Below, one piece after another: positions 7,239 through 59,006 of a DNA stretch of 63,966 nucleotides. The notes beneath the pieces were generated by a model. The model did no database searches. It saw only the letters and a program-made list of their open reading frames with translations, and was not told the DNA's origin. The position numbers and the translations under genes are program-made. Position 1 is the first letter of the stretch, and every line of letters begins with the position of its first letter. Source of the DNA: an uncultured bacterium (GTDB taxonomy: Bacteria; Zixibacteria; MSB-5A5; CAIYYT01); contig CAIVAP010000112.1 in NCBI GenBank assembly GCA_903903945.1, positions 1 to 63,966 of the forward strand. Direction: 5' to 3'.

Positions 7239-7250
7239 GTTGTGTTCCTT

Positions 7251-8360: not shown

Positions 8361-8611
8361 TTCGCTTCTCCGAGTTCACTGCCAAGCATTTCCATCTCGC
8401 GCAAGTATTCGAACACTTTTTGCGCTTCTTCTTCATCGATGATGTTCAACGCAAAGCCGACGTGGATGATAACATAGTCACCGAGTTTGACCTCGGGGAC
8501 ATAGCAGAGATTGACTTCTTTTATCACGCCACCAAAATCAACTTTGCCCATCCGGAAAACCGGATCGTCCCCCGCGATGCTGATAACTTTACCGGGTATG
8601 GCCAAACACAT
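8357..8611 (-). CDS. hypC: Hydrogenase maturation chaperone HypC
   Basis: 84 aa starting MCLAIPGKV, which contains the essential Cys2. Confidence 0.93.
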
Positions 8612-8616
8612 AGCTC

Positions 8617-10926: not shown

Positions 10927-10968
10927 GCCAAGATTATACGGGGTCGGGCGTCAAAGCAAGCAGACGAC

Positions 10969-13542: not shown

Positions 13543-13543
13543 T

Positions 13544-14858: not shown

Positions 14859-14859
14859 C

Positions 14860-17916: not shown

Positions 17917-17992
17917 GGCTTCTCTCGTATCTGGATTAGTTGTTACCGCTACCGAAACTTTTTCGTCGGGCAGAGCATACAATTCGCGCCGA

Positions 17993-18014: not shown

Positions 18015-18154
18015 CGCTTCAGCCCACGTCACATGTCAGTTGCCTGCCGTATCGGCCATCGGTAAGAAATCCCTTGCCAACGCCGACAAGACATGCTATG
18101 TTGGTCAGTGTGTGTTGACGTCTCAATTACCCGGTCTACTTCTTGGAGGATATC

Positions 18155-28667: not shown

Positions 28668-30506
28668 TCACTTGCACAACGCGCATGGCGTAGCGCCGTG
28701 CGTGAATATGTAGCTAATCATGTAAACAGCGTCTGCTACCGTTGGCATTCCATCGCAATCGACATCGCCGCTACGACCGTCAAGGAGAGGACTGCCATGG
28801 ACAAAGATGAATTGAATCAGATGCACTATATCTGCGACGTCTACGCTACCGGAACCATTGTAGTCGCCGCACAATGATGGATCATCGTCATAATCAAAAC
28901 GCGCAACAAATCCTTCCGACGAACCGCCTGCATATTTAGGTAACCACGGATTGTGCAACGGAAAATCGGAGGAGCCGGTTTTGCCTGCCACGATGATCAT
29001 GCCGTTGACCACTGCTACGGCTCGTGCCTCGTCATCCCCCACACCACCATAGAGAGTGCTGAACTCGCTGCTGTCGCCGTCGGAAGAGATGATGCTGACA
29101 AAGGCTTCGCGTAATCCTGCCGTCTCGCTCTGCAAAGGTTTCGTCGTGGGGAAATCGCTTGCCAAAGTCCAGCCGACGACGATGATCTTGCCATTTTTGT
29201 CAGCGACAACCGCGCTTGCTTCGTCATCGCCCGAAACACCGCCGAGATATGTGCTAAATTGCACGGTTCCGGACATCCTGTCGAGCACCGTCACGAAACC
29301 ATCCGACAAACTTGGGCACGACCGACACGAATCTTGCAACGGCAGGTGCAACGGATAATCTGCCGAGTAGGTCTTGCCGACAATAATCACCTTGCCGTCG
29401 GAAGCAAGCGCCATTCCCCGAGGGATATCATCCTGTACGCCGCCCCAGTACGTCGATCTGATCAGCGGCACACCGGATGCGTCGATTTTCGCGACGAACA
29501 GATCTAAACCCCCCATGAGCGTATCCTGCAAGGGTTGGACAACCGGCAAGTCGGGAGAATTTGTCGTGCCGGAAATATAGATCGCGCCCTCGGCATCGAT
29601 GACAATGCCGACGGCATTATCGGCGCCACTGCCACCGAAGTAGGTCGAATAGCTTAGTGTTTTGGTCGTCGCGTTGATCTTGCAGATAAAGGCATCCGTT
29701 GCCGTTCCGGCCAGAGTATCAATCAGCGCATTAACCGTCGGGAAGTTGCTCGAACTGGTGCTGCCAACGATGCCGACGCTGCCGTAATTGTCAACCACGA
29801 GGTCACTGGCTCTGTCTTGACCATTGCCACCGAGATAGGATGAAAACAACAACGAGTCGCCGGCGCTGCTTACGCAGACAATGAGCGCGTCCTCATAGCC
29901 GGAGTTCTGCACCTTAAGCGGCATAACCACCCGCAAATCCGTTGATGTTGTTCCGCCGCAGACCCAGACACGTCCGGCGCTGTCAATGGCAATGCCGGTC
30001 GCTTGATCATTGCCGTTGCCGCCAAAATAGGTGCAAAATTCCAGCGTGTCGCCGGTAGGACAAAACTTGGCGATGAAAATGTCATCTTCCGCCGCGCGGG
30101 TATCCTGAAGTGCGTGCACTATCGGGAAGTTGTCGGAGTTAGTGTGGCCGGTAACATAAATATGTCCCCCCCGATCGATGGCAACATCGGTGATGTTGTC
30201 AGCCGCATTGCCGCCGAGGAAAGTGGAGAATCGCACGGTCGGCGCGGCGAGAGCGGTGGAAGTGAGAGCGACAAGAAACGCGATCGCGCACAAGATCAGC
30301 AGCGTGCGCAGGTTCGTAGGGCGAAACCCTCGCGGTTTCGACTTCCTTGTTTTCCCCCTTAGCAAAGGGGGACCAAGGGGGTTGTAGACGCGTTTCCCGT
30401 CAGCAGAATGACAACCACCCCTTCGGTCCCCCTTTGTTAGGGGGGAATGGCTATTCCCCTCTCCCCGTGGGGGAGGGGTTAGGGGTGAGGGTGCAAGCAA
30501 ACTCAT
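28668..30506 (-). CDS. Secreted SBBP-type beta-propeller repeat protein with a C-terminal twin dockerin-like module
   Basis: Contains about 8 repeats of the form STYLGGxGxDxAxxIxxDxxGxIyvxGxTxSxDFP. The C-terminal module is at 28671-28871. The start is uncertain: ATG 30506 or GTG 30530 both read through the hairpin-repeat cluster. The hydrophobic signal-like segment (LRTLLILCAIAFLVALTSTALA) only begins near 30300. Confidence 0.7.
   Translation of the reverse strand: MSLLAPSPLTPPPRGEGNSHSPLTKGDRRGGCHSADGKRVYNPLGPPLLRGKTRKSKPRGFRPTNLRTLLILCAIAFLVALTSTALAAPTVRFSTFLGGNAADNITDVAIDRGGHIYVTGHTNSDNFPIVHALQDTRAAEDDIFIAKFCPTGDTLEFCTYFGGNGNDQATGIAIDSAGRVWVCGGTTSTDLRVVMPLKVQNSGYEDALIVCVSSAGDSLLFSSYLGGNGQDRASDLVVDNYGSVGIVGSTSSSNFPTVNALIDTLAGTATDAFICKINATTKTLSYSTYFGGSGADNAVGIVIDAEGAIYISGTTNSPDLPVVQPLQDTLMGGLDLFVAKIDASGVPLIRSTYWGGVQDDIPRGMALASDGKVIIVGKTYSADYPLHLPLQDSCRSCPSLSDGFVTVLDRMSGTVQFSTYLGGVSGDDEASAVVADKNGKIIVVGWTLASDFPTTKPLQSETAGLREAFVSIISSDGDSSEFSTLYGGVGDDEARAVAVVNGMIIVAGKTGSSDFPLHNPWLPKYAGGSSEGFVARFDYDDDPSLCGDYNGSGSVDVADIVHLIQFIFVHGSPLLDGRSGDVDCDGMPTVADAVYMISYIFTHGATPCALCK
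30322..30478. repeat. Cluster of four short G/C-run hairpins (REP-like)
   Basis: H1 cgaaacc/ggtttcg at 30322-30340. H2 tccccctt-agca-aaggggga at 30353-30372. H3 tccccct-ttgtt-aggggg(g) at 30427-30445. H4 cccctctccc/gggggagggg at 30456-30478, which includes one G-U pair. Confidence 0.7.
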
Positions 30507-30514
30507 CAGTCCGG

Positions 30515-32119
30515 CTAAAACGCGCCGCACGGCGCGGGACCGCCAGAGAAGATGTACGCAATCAGATAGACGACATCAGCAATAGTAATTACTCCGTCGC
30601 AGTCTGCATCACCTGCTGCCAATGGCGATGGCGCCGGTCCGTGGGAAAAGATATATGCGATGAGATACACAGCGTCGGCGATGTTCACTTCGCCCGACCT
30701 GTCGGCATCACCAGGAATAATGACAAACACCTGCCGATACAATTGTCGGGCGGTCAGAATGTTCGTCGTCAAGTCCGAAAAGTCGAGACTGTCGTAAAAT
30801 GCCTGTGGGTTGTTCGAGTCGAAAAGTTGGAAATCGCTTGGATTGCGATGGAAGTTGTCGCCCATTGCTACCACAAAGGCCAACTCCGTACTGTCGCCCG
30901 GCGCGAGATCGATCGGCCCGAAGGAGAGCAGGAAGCGGGTATCGTAACCGTCTGCCAGATTGCTGGCAACATTCGCTGCCGGCGGCAGCCATCCTTGGGC
31001 GGAATGATCTACTGCTGACCAAAGCTGGTCGTAGTCATTTTCGGAAGTTGACATGATGTAGTACTTGTTTCGGTCACCTTCGGGTGTTCCAAGTCCGCCT
31101 GTGCCGAAATTGCGGTTGTTTTCCTGTCGTCGGGGTCCCCAGTCCAGCGTTGCGACACCGTTCGTAACCCACCAGTTGAACGACTGCTTTGGTTGTGTCG
31201 GGAAGTCGAGCAGGGAGACTCCAAGTACGGCGAGCGTTGATTGAGAAGTCCATTGTCCCGTTCCGGACGGATCACCGTCGTTGTCGGCCGACCAACCAAT
31301 TATCACCTGATCGTCGCTTAAAGAATCTTCAGTGAAATAGCTACCAGAAACATCGTCTTGAAAACCATATGGGGTTTCCGAATGGTAGGCGTCAGTGTCG
31401 AAGTGGAATCCGATGAACACCTTGTTGAGCGTATGAAGACTGATATTCTTGATATGATATCTGAAAATGATGAAATCCTCGTAAGCTGCCTGGTTCCAGG
31501 AATAGGACTCTTGCACGATCTTGAGTCCGATGGGAATGTGTGGTCGATTGTCCATAGGATCACGTCCTGTCCAGACTTCATCGACCAAGGTGTCATAGTA
31601 CTCGGCAATCATGTCGAGATCGCTAAGCGCTGCTGCGTCATAGTTGGGGTCGTAGGGACGGTTTGAGCGTCGTACAATACCGCCGTTTGGACTCGCTTGT
31701 GGATACATCTCAAAAACCCCCGACCAGCCGTCCGCGCCAACGGACACCAACGTGTCGCTATCCACAATCGCCCCGATCCAGAGAGCGCCCTGATAGAGAT
31801 AGTTGATGCCGCTACCGGCGGGGAATTCCGCGGATGGAGCTAGTGAACCGTATGCAATCCCTGGACCTAGACAATACATTTCCTTGAGCTGACCGCCGTT
31901 GAGCTGACTTCCGAAAAATCCCCAGTTGGTTACCGTCATCCACAGATTGCCCGTCCGATGCGAGCAGTTCTGAGTGTTGGGAGTGGCCGTCCATTTCCCC
32001 GAGGCAACTGGTTTTTCGCTATCAAGATATGCGCTCTTGCCAGCGGCCGTTGATCCAAACAGCGTTACAACTGCAATTCCCAATACGATCAACTTAGAGC
32101 CGATCCAGATCGTTTTCAT
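30515..32119 (-). CDS. Secreted protein of unknown function with a C-terminal twin dockerin-like module
   Basis: 534 aa with a signal peptide. GGGAGG lies 5 nt upstream of the ATG. The C-terminal module is at 30518-30712 (GDADRSGEVNIADAVYLIAYIFSHGPAPSPLAAGDADCDGVITIADVVYLIAYIFSGGPAPCGAF). Confidence 0.78.
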   Translation of the reverse strand: MKTIWIGSKLIVLGIAVVTLFGSTAAGKSAYLDSEKPVASGKWTATPNTQNCSHRTGNLWMTVTNWGFFGSQLNGGQLKEMYCLGPGIAYGSLAPSAEFPAGSGINYLYQGALWIGAIVDSDTLVSVGADGWSGVFEMYPQASPNGGIVRRSNRPYDPNYDAAALSDLDMIAEYYDTLVDEVWTGRDPMDNRPHIPIGLKIVQESYSWNQAAYEDFIIFRYHIKNISLHTLNKVFIGFHFDTDAYHSETPYGFQDDVSGSYFTEDSLSDDQVIIGWSADNDGDPSGTGQWTSQSTLAVLGVSLLDFPTQPKQSFNWWVTNGVATLDWGPRRQENNRNFGTGGLGTPEGDRNKYYIMSTSENDYDQLWSAVDHSAQGWLPPAANVASNLADGYDTRFLLSFGPIDLAPGDSTELAFVVAMGDNFHRNPSDFQLFDSNNPQAFYDSLDFSDLTTNILTARQLYRQVFVIIPGDADRSGEVNIADAVYLIAYIFSHGPAPSPLAAGDADCDGVITIADVVYLIAYIFSGGPAPCGAF

Positions 32120-32543: not shown

Positions 32544-35500
32544 CTATTTGATTTTGTCGGTGAGATATTTGACTGCTTCCTCAAGCTGGTTGTCTTCACC
32601 ACGCTCAAGGCGGCTTAGATCGCGGGAAACGACAATGTCTGGTGCAACGCCGTTGTTCTCCAGCGCTTCACCTTTGAGACTGTACCATCCCACCGTCGGG
32701 ACTCCCAGTTTCCAACCGTTGGCAAGCGAATAGTACTTGGCGCCGACCACTGCACCGTAAGTTGTCGTACCCATGATCGTGCCCAGTCCGAGCTCGCGAA
32801 ATCCCAGCGCGAAAATCTCGGCATCGGATGTCGTGTTTTCGTCAGTTAACAGCACAATCGGCGTCGTAATTGCGCCACGCGCATCCTGTCCAATATCGCC
32901 ATCGCGAGTTTTGTGCGTGACATAGGGCTTGCGCGAAAGGCACTCCAGCAGTTCCTCATGATTGTTGCCGCCGACGTTGCCGCGTATGTCAAGAATCAGC
33001 CCTTGCTTACCATCGAGTTGCTGCGCGAGTTCGTTTTCGAAGCCGTTCATGCCATCATTGTCCATCTGCTTCAGTTGAATGTAAGCGAGCTTCTTGTGAG
33101 AGAGGTTGTCCACCAAGCTGCGCGTCCTGGCCAGGTTGTCGCGATATTCGCAATCGTAGTACTCCTCCGCGTCCACCGGCGTAATCAATACGCTGCGGGA
33201 GATGCCATCGCGGCTGAAGATGTCGAGTTTGATTTCCGTGCCCACCGCATTCTCAAAAGCTTCGTAATAGTCGACGTTCGCATTCAACTTTTTGCCTTCG
33301 ACGGCCGTAATCTTGTCTTCCAATCGCAATTCGGAACTCAATCGGGTGGCAGGCGAGCCGGAAAGGAAGTATTTCACTTTTAAGCCCGCCGAGTTGTCCT
33401 CATAGTCGGGTAAGATTCCAAGCATTCCGGTCTCACCAACTCGCGGCTTGTCCCTCCAGATCATGATGTGCGAGCAGTCGAGTTCTCCGGTCATTTCCGT
33501 GATGATGTCGTAGATATCGTTCGGTTCGGTGGCCGCCTGCACGCGAGGAAGGTAGGTTTCGCGGATGTTGTTCCAGTCAACACCGTGCATCGTCGGATCG
33601 TAGAAATGTTCTTTCAATGTCGCCCAAACCTGATCGAAGACATGCGTCATTTCCTGTTTACGATCGATATCCATCTCACCACTGATGAGAAGCGGCGTAG
33701 CTGTGCCGTCTTGGAGGTTGATGCTCTGTATCCTCCCCTTACTGTCTCGCACATACACGATTTCGCCGCGCGGTGAAAATTGCAGATCTGAAGGTGAAGG
33801 CAAGGTGCCGGTGACCACCTTTTGGTCGCTGCCGTCGAGATTCACCCTCTCGATTTGACCGGCAGAGGTGATATACACCAACGTCGAGGAATTTGGCGAC
33901 ATGACAGTCGATTCGATATTGCCCTGATGAGTCAGTTGTACGTCGCGATCGGCGATTCCGTCGAAATCAATCATCACCGTAGGCAATCCGAGTGCATTGG
34001 GGGTCACGTTCTTCTCGGCGTATTCTTGTCGCTCAAGGAAAGTCATTTCCGCCAGGCGTCGCTCCATGTAGAGATAGTGGAGATCGTTATCATTGACGTA
34101 ATAGACCAGTCTGCCATCGGCGGAAAAGCGTGGGTCGTTGTAGCTGCCGGCCGCGTCACTGATCTTGTAGATGGCGCCGCTCTCACTGTCGCCGATGTAT
34201 ATCTGACTGTACCAATCGGCATCCAGCCGGGTGAACACGATGTAACGCCCATCCGGAGACCAATTGAGCGAAGTGATGGCGCCTTTCTCCGTCAGTACAC
34301 GTTCGGTCAGTTTCTTGATGTCCTTGATGACCAGTTCTGTTTCATCGCGGATGAAGGCAAGTTTGCTTTGATCGGGAGAAATCACCGGCACCCGCTTGGT
34401 AAGATCTGACTTGACGAAGGGCGCAATCTCACGATCTCGCGATCGAGCCAGCGAACTCTGACTAAGATCGATCGAGCGGGCAAGATAGATGTCACAGACG
34501 AGATCGCGATCGGAGACAAAAGCCAATTGTTTGGAGTCGGGAGACCAGATGAGATCGCGTTCGTTGGCGGCACTCGATGTGAGTTGCTGTTGATAATTCC
34601 CCGACAGGTCACGACAGAAGATGTCACCGTGAATGACATAGGCAAGCAATTTACCGTCCGGCGAAATTGCAAAATCGCTGACACCCGAATCAAACGTGAC
34701 ATGTTCAACCGCATTGGTCTTGGCCGCAGCCGGAGCTTCCAGTTCCAGCTTACGTCCCTGCCCGGTCTTGAAATCGTAGAGGAAGATTTCGCCGCCAAGT
34801 TCGTAGGCGGCCAACGAAGCGTCCTGAGCCACCGACAGATACGTAATGCTGAGCCGATGATTTGTCAACTGCGTAACCTGGTCGCTGACCAGATTCCTTT
34901 TGAAAAGATTGTATACTCCGGTCGAGTCGGAAAGAAACAGGATTTCGCTGCCGCTGGGGGACCAGAATCCATCCCGCTCGCTGCTGGGCGCTTGCGTGAC
35001 ACGCACGATTGTGCCTGAGGCTAGATCTTTCAGAAATAAATCGCAGGCCGCAGGTCCACGGTAGCCCTTGCGCCAGTACGGCACCGCACCGCGTGTAAAC
35101 AACAGCCGGGCGCCGTCGGGCGATTTGCGACCATCAAACGATTCAATGGTTGTGATGGGTCTAGCGCGTCCGCCGATGGCGGGAACTTCCCACACTTGCT
35201 GATACGGATGATCTCGCTGTGACGCGAAGAGGATTCGTCGACTGTCGGCGCTCCAGCCGGAGACCAGATCATCCGCCGAATAGTAGGTGACGCGCGTTTC
35301 GATACCACCAGTGGCGGAAATTACGAAGATATCATAGTTGCCGTAACGTTGTGACGAGAAAGCGATGAAATTACCGTCCGGAGACCATTTCGGGTAAGCA
35401 TCGTAGCCGACGTGCACTGTCAGGCGTTGGGCTTTGCCGCCCTGCGCGGAGACAATCCAAAGATCGCCCTGATAAGAGAAACAGACTTTCGACCCATCGG

Positions 35501-35615
35501 GCGAAGGCGCTGGATGATGTAGATTTAGCGGCCCTGACAGCACTGTGTTAGATGCTGTCAGGAGCATTAGGATGAGAAACACTTTTGCGTTCAATACCTT
35601 ACCGATCAAGGACAT
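32544..35615 (-). CDS. Tricorn-protease-like protein (TolB-type beta-propellers, PDZ and S41 peptidase) with a signal peptide
   Basis: Repeated motifs SPDGSKVCFSYQGDLWIV and WSPDGNFIAFSSQR, and an S41-type DIRGNVGGN region near the C-terminus. The track starts at TTG 35678. I prefer ATG 35615 (MSLIGKVLNAKVFLILMLLTASNTVLSG), which follows GGAG. Confidence 0.82.
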   Translation of the reverse strand: MSLIGKVLNAKVFLILMLLTASNTVLSGPLNLHHPAPSPDGSKVCFSYQGDLWIVSAQGGKAQRLTVHVGYDAYPKWSPDGNFIAFSSQRYGNYDIFVISATGGIETRVTYYSADDLVSGWSADSRRILFASQRDHPYQQVWEVPAIGGRARPITTIESFDGRKSPDGARLLFTRGAVPYWRKGYRGPAACDLFLKDLASGTIVRVTQAPSSERDGFWSPSGSEILFLSDSTGVYNLFKRNLVSDQVTQLTNHRLSITYLSVAQDASLAAYELGGEIFLYDFKTGQGRKLELEAPAAAKTNAVEHVTFDSGVSDFAISPDGKLLAYVIHGDIFCRDLSGNYQQQLTSSAANERDLIWSPDSKQLAFVSDRDLVCDIYLARSIDLSQSSLARSRDREIAPFVKSDLTKRVPVISPDQSKLAFIRDETELVIKDIKKLTERVLTEKGAITSLNWSPDGRYIVFTRLDADWYSQIYIGDSESGAIYKISDAAGSYNDPRFSADGRLVYYVNDNDLHYLYMERRLAEMTFLERQEYAEKNVTPNALGLPTVMIDFDGIADRDVQLTHQGNIESTVMSPNSSTLVYITSAGQIERVNLDGSDQKVVTGTLPSPSDLQFSPRGEIVYVRDSKGRIQSINLQDGTATPLLISGEMDIDRKQEMTHVFDQVWATLKEHFYDPTMHGVDWNNIRETYLPRVQAATEPNDIYDIITEMTGELDCSHIMIWRDKPRVGETGMLGILPDYEDNSAGLKVKYFLSGSPATRLSSELRLEDKITAVEGKKLNANVDYYEAFENAVGTEIKLDIFSRDGISRSVLITPVDAEEYYDCEYRDNLARTRSLVDNLSHKKLAYIQLKQMDNDGMNGFENELAQQLDGKQGLILDIRGNVGGNNHEELLECLSRKPYVTHKTRDGDIGQDARGAITTPIVLLTDENTTSDAEIFALGFRELGLGTIMGTTTYGAVVGAKYYSLANGWKLGVPTVGWYSLKGEALENNGVAPDIVVSRDLSRLERGEDNQLEEAVKYLTDKIK

Positions 35616-35776
35616 GCTCCAACCGTAACCAAGCATTTGCAAACCTACTAATCTGACGCGCCAGCCGCCAAAACGCAAAATCTTTTTTTGCGTAGTTCAG
35701 TAACGTTTCCTTTCGCGGGCGACCCGAACGACCCTGATGCCCATGGCAAAGCCTTCGATCGGGCTGCTCTTTTAGG

Positions 35777-35811: not shown

Positions 35812-37371
35812 ATGTTTCATCTTGCAGCATTACCGCTTCTGCTTTCTCTCACCTCTGTCTCGGTCGACAGTTCGCGTGGTGTTGCCGCCAGCTCCCAAGT
35901 TCCCCAAACCACTGGCAACGCTATGCTACAGCGGATCGAATCTACCGACTACGTAGCCAATAAGTACTGGGAAGAATATCTGCTTCTGGACAATATGAGC
36001 AAACTGTATGCGAATGTCCGCCCCAGTACCACCCGTTTCCGCAACGAGGAACACGGCGACCGACTGAATCAACCCGTGGCGTCAATCATCAGCGACCGCT
36101 TCCCTTTGTATGATCAGGAGAGTCGGCTGAATCTGAATCATCTTCTAGGCCGTGCCGACCCGTCGGGAGAATTCCCGGCACTGCGTCTGCGTTTTGTGCC
36201 GTACGCGGAGGAATTGGCTGCCGATGACACGCTGCCGGTACACCGCATCGGTATCACTGCCGAATCTTGGATCAACCCGGTTCCCGACTTGCAGGTACAC
36301 ATCCGCGCTCGGGTCGAAAATCACGGTGAACTCTACTCACAGTTTGACGGTCGCAAGTGGAAAAAGAAAATCACCGGCTGGCTGGACAATGCCGCTCTCT
36401 ACTTCTATCACAACGGCATTTTCGGCTCTGTCGGAAGGTCGTATCTCATTTGGGGACCAGAGCCACATGATGCACTGTTGATTTCCGACAATTCACCCGC
36501 GTTCGACCGCATCTGGCTTGGCTATGAACACAAAGCCTTTCGCTTTGACTATGTCATCGCTCGACTCGATGATTTCCATCAAGGCGATTCAATGCTGGTG
36601 CGCTATTTCTCGGCACATCGTTTGTCATTCCGCAAAACCGGAGTTTTCGAATTGGGACTGTCGGAAGTGGCATTATATGGAGGTTACAATCGGCCGATGG
36701 AGTGGCGCTATCTGAATCCTTTCCTTCCCTACTATTGGGAGCAATACAATCGCAATAGCGACGACAACATGTTCATCGGCATGGACGGCGTGATTTATTG
36801 GCCAAAGCGGTCGCGCATCTTCGGTGAGTTGATGATTGATGACTTCCAGATCGACTTCAAGTCGGAGCCCCATCAGGTCGGTTACAAACTCGGCATCGAC
36901 GCTCTGGAGCCATTGGGCTTCGCACGTCTGTTCACGAAGTTGAGCTACACGCGCGTGAATACTACGGTCTATGGGCAGAACAAACCGCAAAATCTCTACC
37001 TCAACTCCGGCCAGCCGATCGGTTATTTTGGGGGCAATGATCAGGATCGTATCTTGGCATTGCTGCGCTATCATGTCTCGACAAGCTGTGATCTGGAACT
37101 CGAATTCCAATACAACCGCCGCGGAGAAGGCCGAATTGAACCGCACCAGTCCAGCGCCGTGCCGAAAGGGGTCAAGTTTCCATCGGGCATTGTGGAAAAA
37201 TCACCATCACTGCAATTAGCCGTCGAACTGTTTCATTCCCAGTTCCTGCAGGGACATGCGGCATTCAACTATGCTCATTTCGCCAACTATCAGCACGTCC
37301 GGGGCCGCAACCATGACAGAATCGGCCTTGACCTGAGGTTATCCTATTATCTGCAGGGATCATTTGACTGA
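35812..37371 (+). CDS. Putative outer-membrane beta-barrel protein; tentatively capsule-assembly Wzi-like
   Basis: 519 aa with a hydrophobic N-terminus and an aromatic-rich alternating pattern. An RYLNPF motif recalls the Wzi family, from memory only. The stop overlaps the ispE ATG (TGATG). Confidence 0.55.
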   Translation: MFHLAALPLLLSLTSVSVDSSRGVAASSQVPQTTGNAMLQRIESTDYVANKYWEEYLLLDNMSKLYANVRPSTTRFRNEEHGDRLNQPVASIISDRFPLYDQESRLNLNHLLGRADPSGEFPALRLRFVPYAEELAADDTLPVHRIGITAESWINPVPDLQVHIRARVENHGELYSQFDGRKWKKKITGWLDNAALYFYHNGIFGSVGRSYLIWGPEPHDALLISDNSPAFDRIWLGYEHKAFRFDYVIARLDDFHQGDSMLVRYFSAHRLSFRKTGVFELGLSEVALYGGYNRPMEWRYLNPFLPYYWEQYNRNSDDNMFIGMDGVIYWPKRSRIFGELMIDDFQIDFKSEPHQVGYKLGIDALEPLGFARLFTKLSYTRVNTTVYGQNKPQNLYLNSGQPIGYFGGNDQDRILALLRYHVSTSCDLELEFQYNRRGEGRIEPHQSSAVPKGVKFPSGIVEKSPSLQLAVELFHSQFLQGHAAFNYAHFANYQHVRGRNHDRIGLDLRLSYYLQGSFD

Positions 37372-38277: not shown

Positions 38278-38571
38278 ATGGAAATCACCGAGATTCGGGT
38301 GACGCTACGCAACGAGAACAAGCTTAAGGCATTTGTCAACGTCACCTTCGACAACCAGTTCGTGATACGAGGCCTCAAAGTAATCAGCGGAAAAGCGGGC
38401 TATTTCGTGAGCATGCCGTCGCGACGTTTGCCTCACGGCATGTATCAAGACATTGCCCATCCGATCAGTAGCGAGGCACGGCACTTCCTTGAAGTCAAGG
38501 TATTTGAGGCCTATGAGGAAGCGCTGAAGGAGTCGGCGGAAGTGATACAGCAGGGAGGCTGCGATTCTTAG
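38278..38571 (+). CDS. spoVG: Septation protein SpoVG
   Basis: 97 aa starting MEITEIRVTLRNENKLKAFVNVTFDNQFVIRGLKVISGKAGYFVSMPSRR. Confidence 0.92.
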   Translation: MEITEIRVTLRNENKLKAFVNVTFDNQFVIRGLKVISGKAGYFVSMPSRRLPHGMYQDIAHPISSEARHFLEVKVFEAYEEALKESAEVIQQGGCDS

Positions 38572-38634
38572 CCGTCCGCTTTTTTTTGCCGGGGCATTGA
38601 CTCAGCCGAGGTAAAAGCGTATCATTGATCGGAT

Positions 38635-38706
38635 TGGGGTGTCGACAAGTGGTAAGTCAGCAGCCTTTGGAGCTGCCATTCCCAGGTTCGAATCCTGGCA
38701 CCCCAG
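38635..38706 (+). tRNA. tRNA-Gln (anticodon UUG); CCA not encoded
   Basis: Folded by hand. Acceptor stem tggggtg/cacccca, anticodon stem gcagc/gctgc with loop cTTTGga, and T arm ccagg-ttcgaat-cctgg. It closely resembles E. coli tRNA-Gln as I recall it. Confidence 0.9.
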
Positions 38707-38842
38707 TTTCTGACAAAGTCCGCAGCCCATTCACCCACTTATCACTGGAACAACCGTCGCGTCTGGCGCCTTGTCCTGCCGCCGAGACAGCGCGAATGTC
38801 GATCACTTTCCGGCAAGGCGAAGTCTCTGACTCAGAATTCTG

Positions 38843-38871
38843 TTGACAATTCCGGTTTTCTCTGCTATTGT
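38843..38871 (+). promoter_or_regulatory. Sigma70-like promoter (TTGACA-N17-TATTGT) for the 39012 gene
   Basis: Exact -35 and 17-nt spacer. The predicted leader to ATG 39012 is about 134 nt. Confidence 0.45.
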
Positions 38872-39011
38872 AGTCTTACAGAACAGAGGCAGGGCTCTCT
38901 CAGACCCGGAGTTGGTCATTGAACAGGCGGCGAGATCTATCCCCCGTTCTCAAGTCATTGCGTGCGGAATACAAGGCACTGTTCGTTGGCAAAGTTCAGG
39001 AGGTTCGCATC

Positions 39012-39836
39012 ATGAAAATCAGCTATCGAATTGGATTCTTGGTCTTGGCCCTGGTCGCCATTATGTCTGCGATCGCCTCGGCCTACCAACCCGCTGATGT
39101 CTCGATTCGTTTCAATGGTGGCGGCAGCCACAACAAAGTCTATGTCGGTCGAGACAACATCATGGAAATCTTGGTCAGAAACGACGTAGCGATCATAGGC
39201 ATGAGTATTGGGTTTCAGTGCACCAGTTTATCCGGCTCGTTTTCCTGGGTGACTCCCTACGGGACCAAGCCGGTCGGCACTCCGTATGTCAAGGAGCATG
39301 GTGACGTGATTGGGGCGTTTGACTTGACCGATGGTATTGTTACCGTCCTTCGTTTGCCCGACACGATCCTCGTTGGTGGCGCAGCAGATACCAATGCGCT
39401 ACCGGCGCACGCCAGTTCCACTGTTTTCGCCTCACTGAAGCTGCGCATTCCGGCGGGGCAGCCAGCTGTATCCTCCGGATTCTGTGTCGACAACATCTTT
39501 GTCCCCCCGGCCGGAACATGGCAAATAGTGGACATCAACTTCGCCGGGTTCCCTCCCACTTTCAACGGACAAGAGAACACGAGTGTCAGCATACCCGATG
39601 CACCGCCGATCTGTTTCGATATCGTCGCCCAGTCTTTCATTCGTGGGGATCTGGACGACAACATGACCATCGACTTGGCCGACCTCACGCGCCTGATTGA
39701 CTATATGTTCTTCAATGGACCGGCTCCGAAGTATCCCGAGTCGGCGGACGTCAACGGCGATGGGCGATTGAACGTCGCTGATGTGGTTTTCCTGATCAGG
39801 TACCTCTTCTCGGGCGGCCCTGAACCGTCGTGGTAG
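39012..39836 (+). CDS. Secreted protein with a possible cohesin-like beta-sandwich and a C-terminal twin dockerin-like module
   Basis: ATG 39012 follows AGGAGG; the track ORF starts earlier at 38919. Signal peptide MKISYRIGFLVLALVAIMSAIASA. The Cys-free dockerin module is at 39645-39833. Confidence 0.75.
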   Translation: MKISYRIGFLVLALVAIMSAIASAYQPADVSIRFNGGGSHNKVYVGRDNIMEILVRNDVAIIGMSIGFQCTSLSGSFSWVTPYGTKPVGTPYVKEHGDVIGAFDLTDGIVTVLRLPDTILVGGAADTNALPAHASSTVFASLKLRIPAGQPAVSSGFCVDNIFVPPAGTWQIVDINFAGFPPTFNGQENTSVSIPDAPPICFDIVAQSFIRGDLDDNMTIDLADLTRLIDYMFFNGPAPKYPESADVNGDGRLNVADVVFLIRYLFSGGPEPSW

Positions 39837-39959
39837 GAGTTTGAAAACGCAACCCAAATGGGTATTGTGGAAGAGCACCGCTCGTTGTCGAAAGGATGAA
39901 CAAGACTACTGATTCGTTAGCTATCGAAGAAGACGGTTTCTTAACCGAAACGGTGTTGG

Positions 39960-41576
39960 ATGATAGTTCGTCTGGTTCAGATTCTGTTGCTGGCCGCTTT
40001 TGGGAGTGTTGCTACCGGAGCGACTGCTGACAGCACCCCGCAAGATACCACACACTCGATGGTTGTGAGAATGACACAACCTCACGTTATCTACCCAGGC
40101 TACAATAGCATTTCGATCACGAAGGCAGGGGGAGATCTAGCCTTCGGCGGTTTCGGCTTTGAAATCAACTATGACCCCGCTGTCCTTATATTTGCTTCTG
40201 CCGAACTCGGCAGCGCACTAAACAATGGTGGCTGCGCGTGGAAATACTTCGCCTACCGACTTGATTCAACGACCAACAGCCCGGGAAATTGCCCACTCGC
40301 TCTGCTGCGAATCGTCGCGGCAACTGATTCCCTGATTGGACCACCTTCATCGGCAGCTTGTCACGTACCGGACGGCGGTGAACTTGTTAGAATCAAGTTT
40401 CTCGTGACCGGTGACCGCACCTACTCTGGATTTTATTCTGCTGTGCGTTTTTGCTGGCGCGGTTGCCAGGACAATGCACTCGTCTCAAGTCAACATGACA
40501 CTCTATTTGTTTCCCGCCGTGTGCTGGACATGACCGATGTCGATCTTATTCGTGGACAGAACAAGGACAATGAGATCACCGGAGCGGACTGCCAATTCCG
40601 CGTTCACTTTGGTGGCGATTGTGCTAGCTGCGATAGTCTGAAGGCCGGCAAGAAGGTGTCGCGACTGGTGGACTTCCAGAATGGCGGTATCTACATCTGC
40701 TGCGGAGATGTCGAACCCACAGGGGATATTAATCTCAACGGTATCCCAAACGAAATTGCGGATGCCAGATTGCTCGCAGATGCCCTGGTGCAGGGGACAG
40801 ATGTCCTGGTCCGGGGTCGAGATATTCTGCCCAATGTCACCAGAGAAGCGGCTGAATTTGCCTCCGACGTCAACGGTGATGACTATCCGCTCACTGTCGC
40901 CGATCTTGTCTATCTGCAGCGCATCATCATCGGAGATGCAATCCCATATCCCAAACTTAGACCCTTCGGTGACTCAGTCAAAGTGACGTTCTCTAATGGG
41001 CTTCTTTCCACCCAATCGCCTTCGGAGATCGCCGGCGTTCTCGCGATCTTCAACTGCGAAGGCAATTGCAGCGTCGAATCCCAATCCATTCTGCCTGTCA
41101 CCAGCCTCTTTGACACAACTAAGAAAGAACTGCGAGTTCTTGCTGCCTGTGGCTCAGACGATTCGAGTACTACATATTACACAGACTGCAACGAGAGGCG
41201 CCTGCCAGCAGGCGAGAACAAGCTGTTCACGATTCATGGTCGGGCCAACCTCTTGACGACGCAGGTATCCGACTACAACGGCAATTTGCTGCTAACGAGT
41301 GTAGGCAACGAACTTTCGCGGCGAGTGTTCGACGTCGCCGATCGAGTGCTCAGTTGGCCGGAACGTGATAATGCCAAAATCGGTTTCTATCTACTGACTG
41401 AGTCCGACTGGCGCATCGACGTCTATTACCAAGATCATATTTTTCAGTCATACTCCGGAAGAGACGTCGGCCACAAGGTTTTCCGGTGCGATGCAACCAA
41501 TTGGTGTCCGGGCACATACACGTATAGCCTAACAGTCGGGGCCTTTCATGCGTCCCGTCCGCTAATCAAATGGTAG
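39960..41576 (+). CDS. Secreted protein with an N-terminal cohesin-like domain, an internal dockerin-like module and a C-terminal domain of unknown function
   Basis: 538 aa with a signal peptide. The segment AFGGFGFEINYDPAVLIFASAELGSAL...GGELVRIKFLV resembles the cohesin core. The dockerin-like twin repeat lies at 40722-40937 (GDINLNGIPNEIADARLL...DVNGDDYPLTVADLVYLQRIIIGD). Confidence 0.75.
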   Translation: MIVRLVQILLLAAFGSVATGATADSTPQDTTHSMVVRMTQPHVIYPGYNSISITKAGGDLAFGGFGFEINYDPAVLIFASAELGSALNNGGCAWKYFAYRLDSTTNSPGNCPLALLRIVAATDSLIGPPSSAACHVPDGGELVRIKFLVTGDRTYSGFYSAVRFCWRGCQDNALVSSQHDTLFVSRRVLDMTDVDLIRGQNKDNEITGADCQFRVHFGGDCASCDSLKAGKKVSRLVDFQNGGIYICCGDVEPTGDINLNGIPNEIADARLLADALVQGTDVLVRGRDILPNVTREAAEFASDVNGDDYPLTVADLVYLQRIIIGDAIPYPKLRPFGDSVKVTFSNGLLSTQSPSEIAGVLAIFNCEGNCSVESQSILPVTSLFDTTKKELRVLAACGSDDSSTTYYTDCNERRLPAGENKLFTIHGRANLLTTQVSDYNGNLLLTSVGNELSRRVFDVADRVLSWPERDNAKIGFYLLTESDWRIDVYYQDHIFQSYSGRDVGHKVFRCDATNWCPGTYTYSLTVGAFHASRPLIKW

Positions 41577-41722
41577 TCGTTTAGGGCATTACTCTACGGT
41601 GTCGATCTGCGGACACTCTCTGAAGAAGCCCTGCTGCCGCCATTCGAACTCAGAGCTGGCAGAAAAGGGTCGGCGACCTGCTCGTGGTCAGGTGACCTGC
41701 CGCCGACCCGTTCTGTATGGGA

Positions 41723-41962
41723 TCACTCATCTTGGACCAGTAGTGATCTCCACTCAATTGCCTCAAGCAGTGTCTTTGCCCGACAACCGAATCTATGTGG
41801 TTCTGCCAGTCCATCGTTTTGATGACGGAATTGTTGTGCCTTTGCCAGAGCCTCAGTCGCGATCCTGTGCGCGGCAACGAGGTCGTTATTCAGATATTCT
41901 CTGTATGCCATCCGGTAGAGCCGGTCGTGCTGTTCCATTGCGTTTTCCAATTCGGCAACCAT
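41723..41962 (-). CDS. Small hypothetical helical protein (weak call)
   Basis: 79-aa ATG ORF with a TAA immediately upstream. The composition looks helical (MVAELENAMEQHDRLYRMAYREYLNNDLVAAHRIATEALAKAQQF). No strong SD and no recognised family. Confidence 0.3.
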   Translation of the reverse strand: MVAELENAMEQHDRLYRMAYREYLNNDLVAAHRIATEALAKAQQFRHQNDGLAEPHRFGCRAKTLLEAIEWRSLLVQDE

Positions 41963-42222
41963 TTATACCATCCGTGACAACTGTCGTCGGGATCGGCAAA
42001 CGGTTCAGAGTATTTTTTGCGATCCGGATTGGAGAGTCGCGAATACTGTCAGCGATTGAGTCCGTAGGAAAGCAACCGCTCACGATGCAAGTGTATGAAT
42101 ATCGATGTCATTGCTGCAAGCATGATAACATCCGCTATCTAACAGGTCAAGGAGAAGGCCGAACTGATACCGACTTGGATTTTCCAAGTGCCCTCAGGCG
42201 GTGAAAACGTCCAATCTATCTA

Positions 42223-43391: not shown

Positions 43392-44966
43392 ATGAAAAGT
43401 TTGTCATTCTTGATCGTGGGGCTAGGACTCATACTCACTGCTGCCTCAACCGCCACAACAATTTATGTTCCTGCTGATCAAGCCACGATTCAGGCAGGTA
43501 TCAATGCGGCGTTTTCGGGGGATACAGTTTTGGTGTCTCCGGGGACGTATATTGAGAACTTGACCATTGCGACGTCAATTCTGCTTCTTTCTGAACAGGG
43601 GGATTCGGTCACGATCGTTCGCCCGGCGGATTCGACTCAAAGCGTCTTATATGCTGTCAGTGCGACAGTGACTGTTCAGGGGTTCACTTTTCGCGACTGC
43701 TGGGCTCCCAAGGCCGTGTTTTTTGACCAATGCCATGTGGTCTTGACCGGCAACACTGTCTGCTTCAACACATCGGCCGATGCGCCCGTTTTCGTGTCGG
43801 GCCGGTATCCAGACGAGGTCGGGAACTGTGTAGCAACTAACTGCGTTGTCCACGACAATCAGGGGGGGATCTTCACGGCCGGTCTGTGCCTGATCGACCT
43901 CGTCGAGCCGGGACGAGTATCTCACTGCACTTTTTACAATAATTACGGAGCCAACGGCGGCGGCATCACTCTGTGGAATGTGCAGAATGCACTTATTGAA
44001 AGATGTCTGATTCGCAACAACGTCGTCGAGAGATACGGGGGCGGTATCGCAATGGTGAATGGATCGAATTACGATACACTCCGAAACAACACGATTGCAC
44101 ATAATTGGTCCACGAGTTCGTCTGGAGGGGGTGTGTTCGGCATGGGTTACGAGAGCGACTTCAGAAACAACATAATCAGTGATAACCGCGGCATCGGAGT
44201 GGTCGGATATCCAGATGGAGGTCCGACGTGGGCGTACTGGTATAACGATTTGTGGCAAAACACGCCTTCGAATGCCGAACCTCCGCTTGGAACAACTAAC
44301 GTTTCAATTGATCCCATGTTTGTTGACACACTCGCCGGAGACTATCGCTTGAAGGCTCAATCGTTCTGCATTGACGCAGGTGATCCAAACCCGATATACA
44401 ACGATCCCGACGGGTCAAGAAACGACATGGGTCGGTACTTCTATGAGAATGACCCGCCGCAGAATTTCAACCTGTTGGTCCCGGCAAACCAGATTGACTC
44501 GTCCGTACTGGAGTTGGCTCCAACTTTCTCTTGGGAAGAGTCACTCGACCCGGATATTAAGGATGTGATCACTTACTCCTTTGTCATATCTATCGACTCG
44601 CAATTTGTCTTTGCAGTCGAAAGAACCGGCATCGCGCAAACAGAATACACACTTGATTTCGATCTGGTCTGGAACACGCGTTACTGGTGGAAGGTGAAAG
44701 CGACCGATGAAGGTGGTATCACGGTCTGGTCTAATTCCGTGTTTACGTTCAGAACTTCCACACTGGGTGATATCAACGACGACGGCGCGATTGATGTGGT
44801 CGATGCCATTTCTTTGATCAACTACATCTTCATCGATGGACCGGCGCCGAGAGCGCTGCGGCTCGCAGACTCCAACTGCGACGGCAGGGTCAATATTGGT
44901 GATGTCGTCTATCTCATCAGATACATCTTCTCTGGAGGCCCCGCGCCTTGCGCCAATCCGGAATGA
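43392..44966 (+). CDS. Secreted right-handed parallel beta-helix protein with an Fn3-like region and a C-terminal twin dockerin-like module
   Basis: 524 aa with a signal peptide. Beta-helix turns are repeated (NNxxxxNGGGI/GGGIA/GGGVF pattern). The C-terminal module is at 44766-44963. Confidence 0.8.
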   Translation: MKSLSFLIVGLGLILTAASTATTIYVPADQATIQAGINAAFSGDTVLVSPGTYIENLTIATSILLLSEQGDSVTIVRPADSTQSVLYAVSATVTVQGFTFRDCWAPKAVFFDQCHVVLTGNTVCFNTSADAPVFVSGRYPDEVGNCVATNCVVHDNQGGIFTAGLCLIDLVEPGRVSHCTFYNNYGANGGGITLWNVQNALIERCLIRNNVVERYGGGIAMVNGSNYDTLRNNTIAHNWSTSSSGGGVFGMGYESDFRNNIISDNRGIGVVGYPDGGPTWAYWYNDLWQNTPSNAEPPLGTTNVSIDPMFVDTLAGDYRLKAQSFCIDAGDPNPIYNDPDGSRNDMGRYFYENDPPQNFNLLVPANQIDSSVLELAPTFSWEESLDPDIKDVITYSFVISIDSQFVFAVERTGIAQTEYTLDFDLVWNTRYWWKVKATDEGGITVWSNSVFTFRTSTLGDINDDGAIDVVDAISLINYIFIDGPAPRALRLADSNCDGRVNIGDVVYLIRYIFSGGPAPCANPE

Positions 44967-55374: not shown

Positions 55375-56472
55375 TCAGTCTTGTCGGCCGGCGACAAGAG
55401 CGCTCGATCCTGCAGGATGAGCTTTGAGATACACAATTGAGTTCTTGATCAGCGCGACCTCATACTTGAAATTGTGCACTCCCTCCGAACGATCATCCTC
55501 AAGTATTAGGAAGTTATAGACCGCTCCGGCTGCACCAGTGGCGACTCTCTTATTGGTGGGTAGGGATGACGCCGAGTCAAGATATCCGTCTGCAATGAGA
55601 AGAGTCTTCAACGTGTCAAGGAGTCCAAGAAATTCGGTCTGTACTCCACTAATGGTGCCGTCGCCATCATAATCGGCTTTCGCCTTGAAGTTATATGATT
55701 TGGCGGATGGATGGCAGTCACTTGCCCTGGCGCACCCTGCGGAAAGATCGCTCCCGGTCGCCTCATCGACCATGTTGAAGCTGTGCCCGCCGATCTTGTA
55801 TCCATCATGAGTAAGAGGGTTGCCCTTGTGGCAATCGATACAACCGTCGGCAAACAGGGTACGATGCGGCGAGCTCTCATAAGCGACGGTCGGGCTTGAA
55901 TACTGATAGCCATTTGTGCCCTCGAACAGATCGCCCTGCGGACCGTGGTGCGGCCCCCAGCGAGTGGAAATACTATCCGTTGGTGAGGCAATACTCGCCG
56001 CTGACATTCTGGAGTGATGACAATTGGCGCAAAGGTTGCCTGCGCCGTGGTCAAACACGGTCGCATTTAACAGAGCGAAGGGCGCTTCCGTGCGCAGGTT
56101 CAAATTACCATTCGTGTGTGGAGCGTGGCAGGTGAAACAGTGAATGGCACTGACTGTAGAGTAGGGAGCGCTCACTGCGCCGGTATTCAAGAATTCGATG
56201 AATCCCTGCTGGCTGTGGCAGCGAGTGCAATCATTGCCGCCACCGCGATTGGTATAGTCAATATTGGTGCCCGAAGCGTGTACCGAATTCTGCCATTCGC
56301 CCTGTGCTTCAAGAATTGCGCCTCCAAAGCTTTCCTCGCCGTGGCACGCAAAGCAACCTGTCAGTTGCTGGTTATCATTGCTGACCTGGTTGACAACCTT
56401 GCGTTCGCATCCCGCAATGACCGCGAGCATCGCAATCAGAGCGATAATGCTCAGGACACGTAGTACCCTCAT
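55375..56472 (-). CDS. Lipoprotein multihaem c-type cytochrome (5 CxxCH); candidate surface component of the porin-cytochrome cluster
   Basis: 365 aa with lipobox LAVIAG-C. Haem motifs are CFACH, CTRCH, CFTCH, CANCH and CIDCH. It starts 9 nt downstream of the barrel gene. Confidence 0.8.
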   Translation of the reverse strand: MRVLRVLSIIALIAMLAVIAGCERKVVNQVSNDNQQLTGCFACHGEESFGGAILEAQGEWQNSVHASGTNIDYTNRGGGNDCTRCHSQQGFIEFLNTGAVSAPYSTVSAIHCFTCHAPHTNGNLNLRTEAPFALLNATVFDHGAGNLCANCHHSRMSAASIASPTDSISTRWGPHHGPQGDLFEGTNGYQYSSPTVAYESSPHRTLFADGCIDCHKGNPLTHDGYKIGGHSFNMVDEATGSDLSAGCARASDCHPSAKSYNFKAKADYDGDGTISGVQTEFLGLLDTLKTLLIADGYLDSASSLPTNKRVATGAAGAVYNFLILEDDRSEGVHNFKYEVALIKNSIVYLKAHPAGSSALVAGRQD

Positions 56473-58046: not shown

Positions 58047-59006
58047 TCACCGTACCCTGTCGTGACAGCCCGACTGATAGCAGTCGGCAAAGAACTTGGT
58101 GTTCAACTGCGGGTCCAGAAACATGCGGTTGTCATCCGAGCCATGAATGTCGGTGTGGCAATTGACACAGTCGACTTTGATCCCCATGCCGGAATGCGCC
58201 GTACGATGCGCCGGCGGAATGCCGTGGCATTGAAGACAGACGCCATTGCCCGGTTGTGCCAACAGACGATCGTTCGGGGAACCGTGGGGGTCATGGCATT
58301 CGGTGCAACCGCCGCCGTTGAACGAATAGGTCTCGGTCACCGGATGCTCAAACGCATGCGGCCCCGAATATTCGCTGTGGCAATTCTGGCAGGCCCAGTC
58401 GATGCCGCGCGCCAACGTCGGATCCTTGCGGTCGTCCGGAAAATGGCAACTGGAACAGCGGATATTGTCGGTCACTAGCGGATGCGCCGACCGACTTTTG
58501 AATTGGGCGACAACATTAGTGTGACAGGTGCCACAATAATCATCCGTGTCATCCTTAACCAGCGATCTGCTCTTGTTGCCGTGCACCGTGTGACACGAAC
58601 TGCAGGTAAGTTGCGCGCGCCCGTGCGGATCGGTAGTGAGCATTGTCGCCTGATGGTCATTCAGGTGGCAGCCGCTGCAAACCTCCGCCTGTTTGGGGAG
58701 AGACAGATCAGCCGGATTGACGATGTTGTCCTTGGTAGGGTCCTCAAGATGCTTCTCCCAGTCCGGATGGCAGCCGATGCAGCCAACGGTCACTTTCGCC
58801 ATCTTGTCGTCGACCATCGTTAGCTGGTGTGTTGATCCTTTGAGATTGTCCGCCGCCTCCGGATGACACTCCAGACACGCCCCCGACTTGGAAATCATGT
58901 CATCGCGCGAGTAGGGAGGCGAAGCTTCTGCCAAAGGGATAGTTGCAATCAGGAAAAAAAGGAGCAGCAGAGTCCTTGAGACTTGTGCACTTCCTTGTTT
59001 ACTCAT
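58047..59006 (-). CDS. Periplasmic decahaem c-type cytochrome (MtrA/DmsE-like)
   Basis: 319 aa with a signal peptide. Ten CxxCH motifs (CLECH, CIGCH, CSGCH, CSSCH, CGTCH, CSSCH, CQNCH, CTECH, CLQCH, CVNCH) plus one CYQSGCH. Confidence 0.85.
   Translation of the reverse strand: MSKQGSAQVSRTLLLLFFLIATIPLAEASPPYSRDDMISKSGACLECHPEAADNLKGSTHQLTMVDDKMAKVTVGCIGCHPDWEKHLEDPTKDNIVNPADLSLPKQAEVCSGCHLNDHQATMLTTDPHGRAQLTCSSCHTVHGNKSRSLVKDDTDDYCGTCHTNVVAQFKSRSAHPLVTDNIRCSSCHFPDDRKDPTLARGIDWACQNCHSEYSGPHAFEHPVTETYSFNGGGCTECHDPHGSPNDRLLAQPGNGVCLQCHGIPPAHRTAHSGMGIKVDCVNCHTDIHGSDDNRMFLDPQLNTKFFADCYQSGCHDRVR

Follow-up and report, generated by a model that had tools for sequence, protein, structure and literature searches.

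A probable non-cellulolytic cohesin–dockerin surface assembly encoded by an uncultured Zixibacterium

Introduction

Cohesin–dockerin assembly is best known from the cellulosomes of Gram-positive bacteria. The clostridial and ruminococcal scaffoldins, such as ScaA and ScaB of Acetivibrio cellulolyticus or CipA of Clostridium thermocellum with OlpB and SdbA, combine cohesin folds with dockerins made of duplicated F-hands, and a single chain that holds both a cohesin and a dockerin constitutes an adaptor. Here we describe two adjacent genes, A and B, in a 63,966-nucleotide stretch of DNA (contig CAIVAP010000112.1; this whole 64-kb stretch is referred to as the window) from an uncultured Zixibacterium, a diderm of the FCB (Fibrobacterota–Chlorobiota–Bacteroidota) group whose genome was assessed from this stretch only. 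As in the adaptors, each gene encodes a non-catalytic protein with one cohesin-fold domain and one dockerin, and relatives of gene B share with the scaffoldins the presence of several cohesins per chain, an anchor or a dockerin at the end of the chain, and distinct dockerin classes. In contrast to the known cellulosomes, however, the host is a diderm, and the anchor is a C-terminal sorting domain (CTD) of the secretion system of type IX (T9SS), not an SLH domain or a sortase signal. Moreover, no family of glycoside hydrolases or carbohydrate-binding modules was detected in the window's dockerin proteins, which carry β-propeller, β-helix, TSP3/Ig and unassigned domains instead. The A/B system is scaffoldin- and adaptor-like in the way it would work, but it is not a cellulosome. 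The likeness to clostridial adaptors and scaffoldins drawn in a first-pass annotation of this DNA therefore holds for the adaptor architecture but not for the anchoring, which is of T9SS type in a diderm.

The nearest published parallel that we found is ‘Candidatus Stygibacter’ of the Cloacimonadota, for which a scaffoldin anchored through a CTD, together with peptidases and hydrolases that bear dockerins, was inferred (Front Microbiol 2021, PMC8542988). Compared by description only, the two cases share an origin in a metagenome-assembled genome (MAG) of the FCB group, a T9SS-type CTD on a cohesin protein, and dockerin-tagged proteins that are not cellulases. ‘Ca. Stygibacter’ has a single 3,755-residue scaffoldin with tandem cohesins and CBM2 and CBM3 modules, whereas here a multi-paralogue cohesin–dockerin–sandwich–CTD family occurs with small adaptors and no carbohydrate-binding module. 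A use other than on the plant cell wall is also shared with the Archaeoglobus fulgidus cohesin (2xdh) and the modules of GH84 and GH33 proteins of Clostridium perfringens (2jh2, 2vo8), all of which are among the structural matches of both A and B. These modules are few per organism, whereas the present family comprises more than 1000 cluster representatives, forms tandem arrays and carries a T9SS signal. Non-cellulosomal cohesin and dockerin modules are reportedly widespread. In the literature searched, we found no paper linking Zixibacteria with dockerins, cohesins or T9SS. The analysis presented below leads us to consider it reasonably probable that A and B are two parts of a non-cellulolytic cohesin–dockerin surface assembly.

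Results

Genes A and B each combine a cohesin-fold domain with a dockerin

The open reading frames (ORFs) of genes A and B lie where the first-pass annotation had placed them, and the peptides that it quoted occur in the translation of gene B. The promoter-like TTGACA-N17-TATTGT ahead of gene A is likewise present (Table 1), as a consensus match only, and the sigma-70 consensus may not be that of Zixibacteria. Both proteins begin with a typical Sec signal peptide without a lipobox, called by reading the sequence. In the AlphaFold2 (AF2) model of protein A (predicted local distance difference test score, pLDDT, 86.3; 20 homologues in the alignment), the N-terminal domain, cohA, adopts a cohesin-type fold: the best 49 Foldseek matches in the PDB are cohesins only (probability 1.00, TM-score to the target ≤0.76), including types I, II and III as well as non-cellulosomal cohesins of Clostridium perfringens and Archaeoglobus. 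The C-terminal module is a canonical dockerin with two 12-residue Ca loops, in agreement with its earlier assignment. Residues 212–265 match Pfam Dockerin_1 (PF00404) with 40.4 bits (E 3.3e-10), above the 22.9-bit cut-off, and a dockerin is present in all 14 close orthologues.

The N-terminal domain of protein B, cohB, is about 70 residues longer than the classical cohesins, including those of clostridial and ruminococcal scaffoldins, and carries conserved cysteines. The AF2 model of protein B (pLDDT 81.9; 72 homologues in the alignment) again retrieved cohesins only among its best 43 Foldseek matches in the PDB (probability 1.00, E 5e-8 to 1.6e-4, TM-score to the target 0.5–0.75), with types I, II and III and the non-cellulosomal Archaeoglobus cohesin again represented. 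Structure prediction thus bears out a cohesin-type, nine-stranded jelly-roll fold for both N-terminal domains, which had been suggested tentatively for A and from a core signature for B. Supporting this assignment, a profile of the gene B family, which uses sequence only, matched more than 15 solved cohesin chains, then the dockerin 3ul4_B and then the T9SS CTD 8glj_D, in the correct order along the protein. In addition, several homologues exceed the Pfam Cohesin threshold at the very site where gene B itself matches weakly (P0038, 26.4 bits; P0053, 28.7; P0040, 28.8; P0148, 36.6; P0146, 61), and paralogues encoded in a four-gene cluster described below reach 33.6–59 bits. Because the fold matches, the family-profile matches and the scores of the homologues agree, cohB is, as far as models and profiles tell, a divergent true cohesin. 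Matches of gene B to DCX and D-cysteine desulfhydrase models (Pfam/NCBIfam) were spurious and were disregarded.

Unlike in clostridial and ruminococcal scaffoldins, the dockerin of protein B is internal and follows the cohesin directly. This module, Bdoc, has its core at 40722–40937 (residues 255–326, GDINLNGIPNEIAD ... SDVNGDDYPLTVAD) and contains a long linker and two F-hand loops of 13 residues, compared with the canonical 12. Each loop has Asp or Asn at positions 1, 3 and 5 and Asp at position 13, and the helices that follow are predicted by AF2. Among 72 homologues, the Ca-ligand positions D256, N258, D268, N305 and D315 do not vary, and conservation is at least 90% at N260, D303 and D307. 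When the Bdoc family profile was aligned with the canonical dockerins of the lineage (hhalign), the probability was 97% (E 8.4e-11). These results indicate that Bdoc is a homologous dockerin variant of non-canonical form, as judged from profiles and the predicted structure.

Table 1. Positions of genes A and B, their modules and other features of the window. aa, amino acids; HMM, hidden Markov model
Feature	Position	Strand	Basis or remark
Sigma-70-like promoter match TTGACA-N17-TATTGT	38843–38871	+	10/12 matches; TG ahead of the second hexamer (-10); 5′ of gene A
Gene A, 274 aa, secreted cohesin–dockerin protein of small adaptor type	39012–39836	+	ORF; AGGAGG 9 nt 5′ of ATG
Gene A signal peptide, aa 1–24, MKISYRIGFLVLALVAIMSAIASA	39012–39083	+	n-region, hydrophobic core, ASA cleavage motif; kept in orthologues
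cohA, predicted cohesin-fold domain of gene A, aa 25–206	39084–39629	+	AF2 model and Foldseek
Canonical C-terminal dockerin of gene A, aa 207–274	39630–39833	+	Pfam Dockerin_1; repeats dissimilar, 10/28 identical
Gene B, 538 aa: cohesin, variant dockerin, β-sandwich, CTD-derived domain	39960–41576	+	ORF; 117 homologues
Gene B signal peptide, ~aa 1–23, MIVRLVQILLLAAFGSVATGATA, no lipobox Cys	39960–40028	+	Sequence reading; AF2 N-terminal helix, then low-confidence stretch
cohB, divergent cohesin of gene B, aa 34–248	40059–40703	+	Foldseek, family profile, Pfam scores of homologues
Bdoc, dockerin variant of gene B, aa 251–332	40710–40955	+	hhalign, conserved Ca ligands, AF2 helix pattern
midB, β-sandwich of gene B, aa 335–449	40962–41306	+	AF2 all-β, pLDDT mostly >90; family HMM 73.8 bits
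C-terminal β-sandwich of gene B, derived from T9SS type A sorting domain, aa 452–538	41313–41573	+	HMM, collinear alignment
Candidate cargo, secreted, C-terminal dockerin	18143–19135	+	Symmetrical repeats, 21/28 identical
Candidate cargo, TSP3 repeats, He_PIG Ig domain, C-terminal dockerin	21368–23431	-	Repeats 25/28 identical
Candidate cargo, SBBP β-propeller, C-terminal dockerin	28668–30530	-	Pfam Dockerin_1 21 bits, just below threshold; window dockerin HMM 120 bits
Candidate cargo, C-terminal dockerin	30515–32119	-	~460 N-terminal residues without detectable family
Candidate cargo, right-handed β-helix, FN3-like domain, C-terminal dockerin	43392–44966	+	Domain models, window dockerin HMM
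Tricorn-like protease, 1044 aa	32544–35678	-	PD40 propellers, Tricorn_C1, Peptidase_S41
Wzi-like capsule-assembly outer-membrane protein	35812–37371	+	PF14052, E 5e-16
79-aa ORF (MVAELENAMEQHDRLYRMAYREYL...)	41723–41962	-	Near residue-for-residue match in L004 (7913–8152)
[NiFe]-hydrogenase cluster with maturation genes	6183–16026	-	HypE-like, HypD, HypF, HycI-type protease, large and small subunits, FAD/NAD and Fe–S subunit, cyclic nucleotide (cNMP)-binding protein
Multihaem c-type cytochromes	16414–17982, 55375–56472, 58047–59006	-	One with MtrC/MtrF-like domain

The C-terminal domain of gene B derives from a T9SS sorting domain

The last ~210 residues of protein B, described in the first-pass annotation as being of unknown fold, are resolved by AF2 as two β-sandwiches. 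The first, midB, always follows Bdoc within the family, and the two repeat as a unit in multi-copy relatives. The second corresponds to a T9SS sorting domain in degenerate form. Its 87 residues match an HMM of 53 canonical paralogue CTDs, built without nine members of the family whose C-terminus is a canonical dockerin, with 31.4 bits (E 8e-12); they are collinear with the type A sorting domains of longer homologues, and AF2 predicts β strands at 472–537. NCBI gives the name of T9SS sorting-domain protein to relatives of gene B from Zixibacteria MAGs.

Compared with the type A cargo of Bacteroidota (TIGR04183/PF18962), the paralogues of gene B carry the canonical CTD, and the end of gene B is homologous to it but lacks both NPFNP and the KKMVLLK-type end with its terminal KxxK. 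In gene B and its five closest relatives, NPFNP is replaced by WPER, WPHR or WPLR, except that P0012 keeps an intermediate NPFR; apart from P0012, the chains end in PLI[KGR]W, which in gene B is the conserved RPLIKW. Against curated cut-offs of 23 bits (TIGR04183) and 27 bits (PF18962), the orthologues P0004 and P0012 fall below threshold at 19–20 bits, whereas the long paralogues pass with 30–46 bits. Judged from these alignments, the CTD of gene B is T9SS-derived but degenerate, and this form is conserved among gene B orthologues.

Fusion proteins and gene order link A to B

Elsewhere the two genes occur as one. A predicted protein of 829 aa (L014:4978-7464) aligns with residues 11–207 of gene A at 40% identity (E 2e-47) and, after roughly 100 more residues, with residues 34–536 of gene B at 39% identity (E 4e-103), in the order seen in the window. 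We mapped 84 loci with purpose-built HMMs for cohA, cohB, Bdoc, midB, the canonical dockerin and the CTD, and found 20 proteins in which cohA, at the N-terminus, is fused to the body of gene B. Because A and B are joined in one polypeptide elsewhere, this Rosetta-stone evidence suggests that they form one complex. Adjacency of separate genes points the same way: A-type and B-type genes are neighbours in at least eight contigs, another contig has the A–B pair again, 3′ of a kdp operon, and small cohA–dockerin genes lie directly 3′ of B-type genes in L009, L014, L016, L018, L019 and L020, such a gene closing a run of B-type genes in six loci.

The slot just 3′ of SpoVG/tRNA-Gln (38634–38707; flanks 38278–39960) varies among related genomes. 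In the order tricorn–Wzi–IspE–SpoVG–tRNA–X, L001 and L003 have only gene B at X, L004 and L006 have only gene A there, and the window has both genes; a further arrangement is gene B followed by a second B-type paralogue (L003/L008), which is what the L003 slot holds. This suggests repeated gain or loss of cohesin–dockerin genes beside the tRNA.

Gene B belongs to a large family with repeated modules

A word index returned 117 homologues of gene B, most of them 840–900 aa long with PF18962 (the T9SS CTD), often with N-terminal He_PIG, Big_9 or LamG domains, and labelled Zixibacteria, GN15 or FCB group by NCBI. A scan of one genome per species confirmed at least 496 relatives at 3–5 loci per genome, nearly all in Zixibacteria MAGs, with some that carry the label Ignavibacteria and one that carries Calditrichota. 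Searched exhaustively with phmmer, the cohB and Bdoc part retrieved at least 1164 cluster representatives (50% identity) at E ≤1e-3, of which 859 were at E ≤1e-10; almost all of those that bear an organism name come from Zixibacteria MAGs. On this sequence evidence, the cohB–Bdoc–midB proteins are a large, undescribed and unnamed family of mainly one phylum, of which gene B is a short and divergent member.

The 84 mapped loci encode 80 proteins of the order cohB–Bdoc–midB–CTD, 20 with cohA in front of that order and 11 small cohA–dockerin proteins. Genomes have several B-type paralogues each, which often stand in tandem arrays. Some family members have a canonical dockerin at the C-terminus in place of the CTD. 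Because relatives end in either a CTD or a canonical dockerin, they may be divided into anchoring and adaptor scaffoldins as in cellulosomes. Giant relatives carry 3–5 cohB domains per chain: P0145 is a fragment of 1518 aa, P0146 (2189 aa) has five cohB domains, three Bdoc–midB units and one CTD, and P0148 (1644 aa) has three cohB–Bdoc–midB units, an extra Bdoc–midB and a C-terminal canonical dockerin. These multi-cohesin relatives, together with the pairing of cohesin and dockerin in both A and B, uphold the scaffold or adaptor role proposed in the first-pass annotation. In the giant relatives Bdoc–midB is also found without a preceding cohesin, and it thus behaves as an independent dyad that recalls the X-module–dockerin pair of clostridial and ruminococcal scaffoldins.

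About 19 loci (L015, L022, L081 and ~16 others; for example, L015:3507-12753) contain a four-gene cluster that encodes, in order, a small dockerin protein, a (cohA–)cohB–Bdoc–midB–CTD protein, a second B-type protein and a He_PIG–Cohesin–Dockerin–CTD protein. It looks like the core operon of the system. The window lacks this cluster, and its dockerin proteins were rejected as orthologues of the cluster's first gene; the BLAST matches covered essentially the dockerin only.

The fixed order of cohesin and dockerin in one chain could also reflect in-cis or homotypic pairing instead of cargo recruitment. On this alternative, the dockerin of one protein or repeat would bind the cohesin of its neighbour, head to tail, T9SS-anchored proteins would become cross-linked, and the family would build a self-assembling lattice or fibre, a Ca-dependent coat or adhesive fibril that recruits no enzymes. 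Such a structure would suit the invariable cohB–Bdoc–midB order in the 80 mapped proteins, the repetition of the unit in P0145, P0146 and P0148, the many tandem paralogues per genome, the adhesin-like N-terminal extensions (Ig, cadherin, LamG), and the fact that Bdoc forms a class of its own, apart from the C-terminal dockerins that the putative cargo carries. It would, however, provide no partner for the many canonical dockerins at the C-terminus of unrelated secreted proteins. Moreover, P0146 has four successive cohesins with no dockerins between them, resembling cargo-binding sites, and the replacement of the CTD by a canonical dockerin in some members implies hierarchical docking. We regard the lattice as unlikely, although it is the alternative that we take most seriously, and retain the view that the assembly recruits other proteins.

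Dockerin-tagged proteins in the window are candidate cargo

The window contains seven dockerins, the number counted in the first-pass annotation: six canonical C-terminal ones, in the genes starting at 18143, 21368, 28668, 30515, 39012 (gene A) and 43392, and Bdoc. The inventory used an HMM made of the dockerins of the window itself; a strict regular expression matched only two of the seven and gave false positives in TSP3 repeats. Between the two repeats, identity is 21–25 of 28 positions in three of the six canonical dockerins, 10–14 of 28 in those of gene A, the β-helix protein and the propeller protein, and 6 of 28 in Bdoc. The dockerins of the window therefore fall into at least two sequence classes, symmetrical and asymmetrical, with Bdoc as a further class. 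The presence of several classes fits the needs of a hierarchical system, which is only suggestive.

PDB sequence searches with the two dockerin proteins that lack a family gave matches to the dockerin only. The cargo named in the first-pass annotation stands with respect to the propeller and β-helix proteins and the lack of glycoside hydrolases, but not the protease, since the tricorn/S41-like protease (32544–35678) has no dockerin. Two of the dockerin genes, 28668–30530 and 30515–32119, share 16 nt and are probably transcribed together.

Setting of the locus

The guanine-plus-cytosine content along the window is even (0.52–0.56), indicating an ordinary chromosomal stretch. Besides the dockerin genes, the window holds, among others, [NiFe]-hydrogenase and hyp genes and genes for multihaem cytochromes, for a phosphate ABC transporter and for UvrD. 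The multihaem cytochromes hint at extracellular electron transfer in the host organism. Immediately 5′ of gene A lie the tricorn-like protease, the Wzi-like protein, IspE, SpoVG and tRNA-Gln. In all related contigs examined, the protease is syntenic with Wzi–IspE–SpoVG, and the Wzi-like gene, which fits a diderm envelope, adjoins the cohesin–dockerin slot. Downstream of gene B, the short minus-strand ORF of 79 aa listed in Table 1 has a counterpart, matched by position only, in a 79-aa minus-strand gene at a like position 3′ of a B-type gene (L002:2084-2323). A 201-aa ORF on the plus strand (41599–42204) has no Pfam match and overlaps this conserved ORF, and is probably spurious.

Discussion

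Based on these findings, we propose a plausible route by which A and B could act. Both proteins would be exported by the Sec system. T9SS would carry the B-type proteins across the outer membrane and fix them to the surface, a step for which the paralogues have the canonical signal and which is uncertain for gene B itself. A would then dock on B, re-creating non-covalently the two-cohesin form that is fused elsewhere, most simply through insertion of the A dockerin into the B cohesin or of the B dockerin into the A cohesin. The cohesin or cohesins left free could capture the dockerin-tagged proteins encoded nearby, namely the β-propeller, β-helix and TSP3/Ig proteins and two of unassigned function. 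We infer Ca dependence, the choice of cohesin–dockerin partners and the surface location of the system.

Several observations weigh against this proposal. With regard to the folds, the first 200 residues of gene A have no Pfam match, including to Cohesin (PF00963), and gene B reaches only 13.3 bits with that model (E 0.097, residues 52–89), under the 24.1-bit cut-off, so that the cohesin signature reported for gene B stands by its fold, family profile and homologues and not by its own score. Similarly, Bdoc does not match Pfam Dockerin_1; the module had been recognised correctly as dockerin-like, but with its 13-residue loops it departs from the canonical form. No sequence similarity between cohA and cohB was detectable (hhalign probability 0.8%), which rules out recent duplicates and means that cohA is identified by its predicted fold only. 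With regard to the pairing, single-gene occupants of the slot in related genomes rule out A–B as an obligate operon, and because each gene stands alone at the same slot there, A and B are not obligatorily paired. With regard to export, the last 87 residues of gene B match neither PF18962 nor TIGR04183 at E up to 10. Since the domain also lacks the type A motifs, the export and anchoring of protein B are doubtful. No gene of a T9SS machinery, such as those for SprA, PorV, PorU or GldKLMN, is present in the 64-kb window. Furthermore, no route across the outer membrane is apparent for the dockerin-only proteins.

The Pfam scores would suit a second alternative, in which the similarities are structural only: the cohesin folds would be generic spacers and the F-hand pairs Ca stabilisers in ordinary T9SS adhesins, with no pairing between them. 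Cohesin-like jelly rolls do occur in other adhesins, and the CLIPPER adhesin domain 9ifr is at rank 50 in the Foldseek results for gene A. To our knowledge, few non-cellulosomal cohesin–dockerin pairs have been shown to bind. Nonetheless, the Foldseek lists consist almost purely of cohesins at probability 1.00, and homologues score above the curated Cohesin threshold. Moreover, proteins rich in cohesins and proteins rich in dockerins are found together in the same genomes, where they cluster, and the C-terminus can hold a CTD or a canonical dockerin interchangeably. Mere look-alikes are therefore, in our judgement, quite improbable.

The export of the cargo could be explained in a further way. 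The dockerin-tagged proteins of the window have a signal peptide but lack a CTD, gene B being the only match to the CTD model. CTD-bearing cohesin proteins might thus capture CTD-less dockerin proteins in the periplasm, and the folded, preassembled complex would pass through the T9SS translocon and be displayed. T9SS substrates are exported in the folded state, but we know of no documented co-transport through this system. The CTD of gene B is itself degenerate, and type II secretion or outer-membrane vesicles could export the cargo equally well. Such hitch-hiking is a long shot; if true, it would represent a new export route and a new role for cohesin–dockerin pairs. The overall evidence nonetheless favours, with moderate confidence, a surface assembly to which A and B both contribute.

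In this family, cohesins and an internal dockerin of unusual form are joined to the T9SS signal of a diderm, and the family appears to organise non-cellulolytic surface proteins. If the pairings are real, they raise the question of how dockerin-only proteins pass the outer membrane. They would also offer orthogonal cohesin–dockerin pairs for protein engineering, with 13-residue Ca loops and two unrelated cohesin classes, and they would account for the large number of ‘dockerin’ proteins without an obvious partner in Zixibacteria and related FCB-group MAGs.

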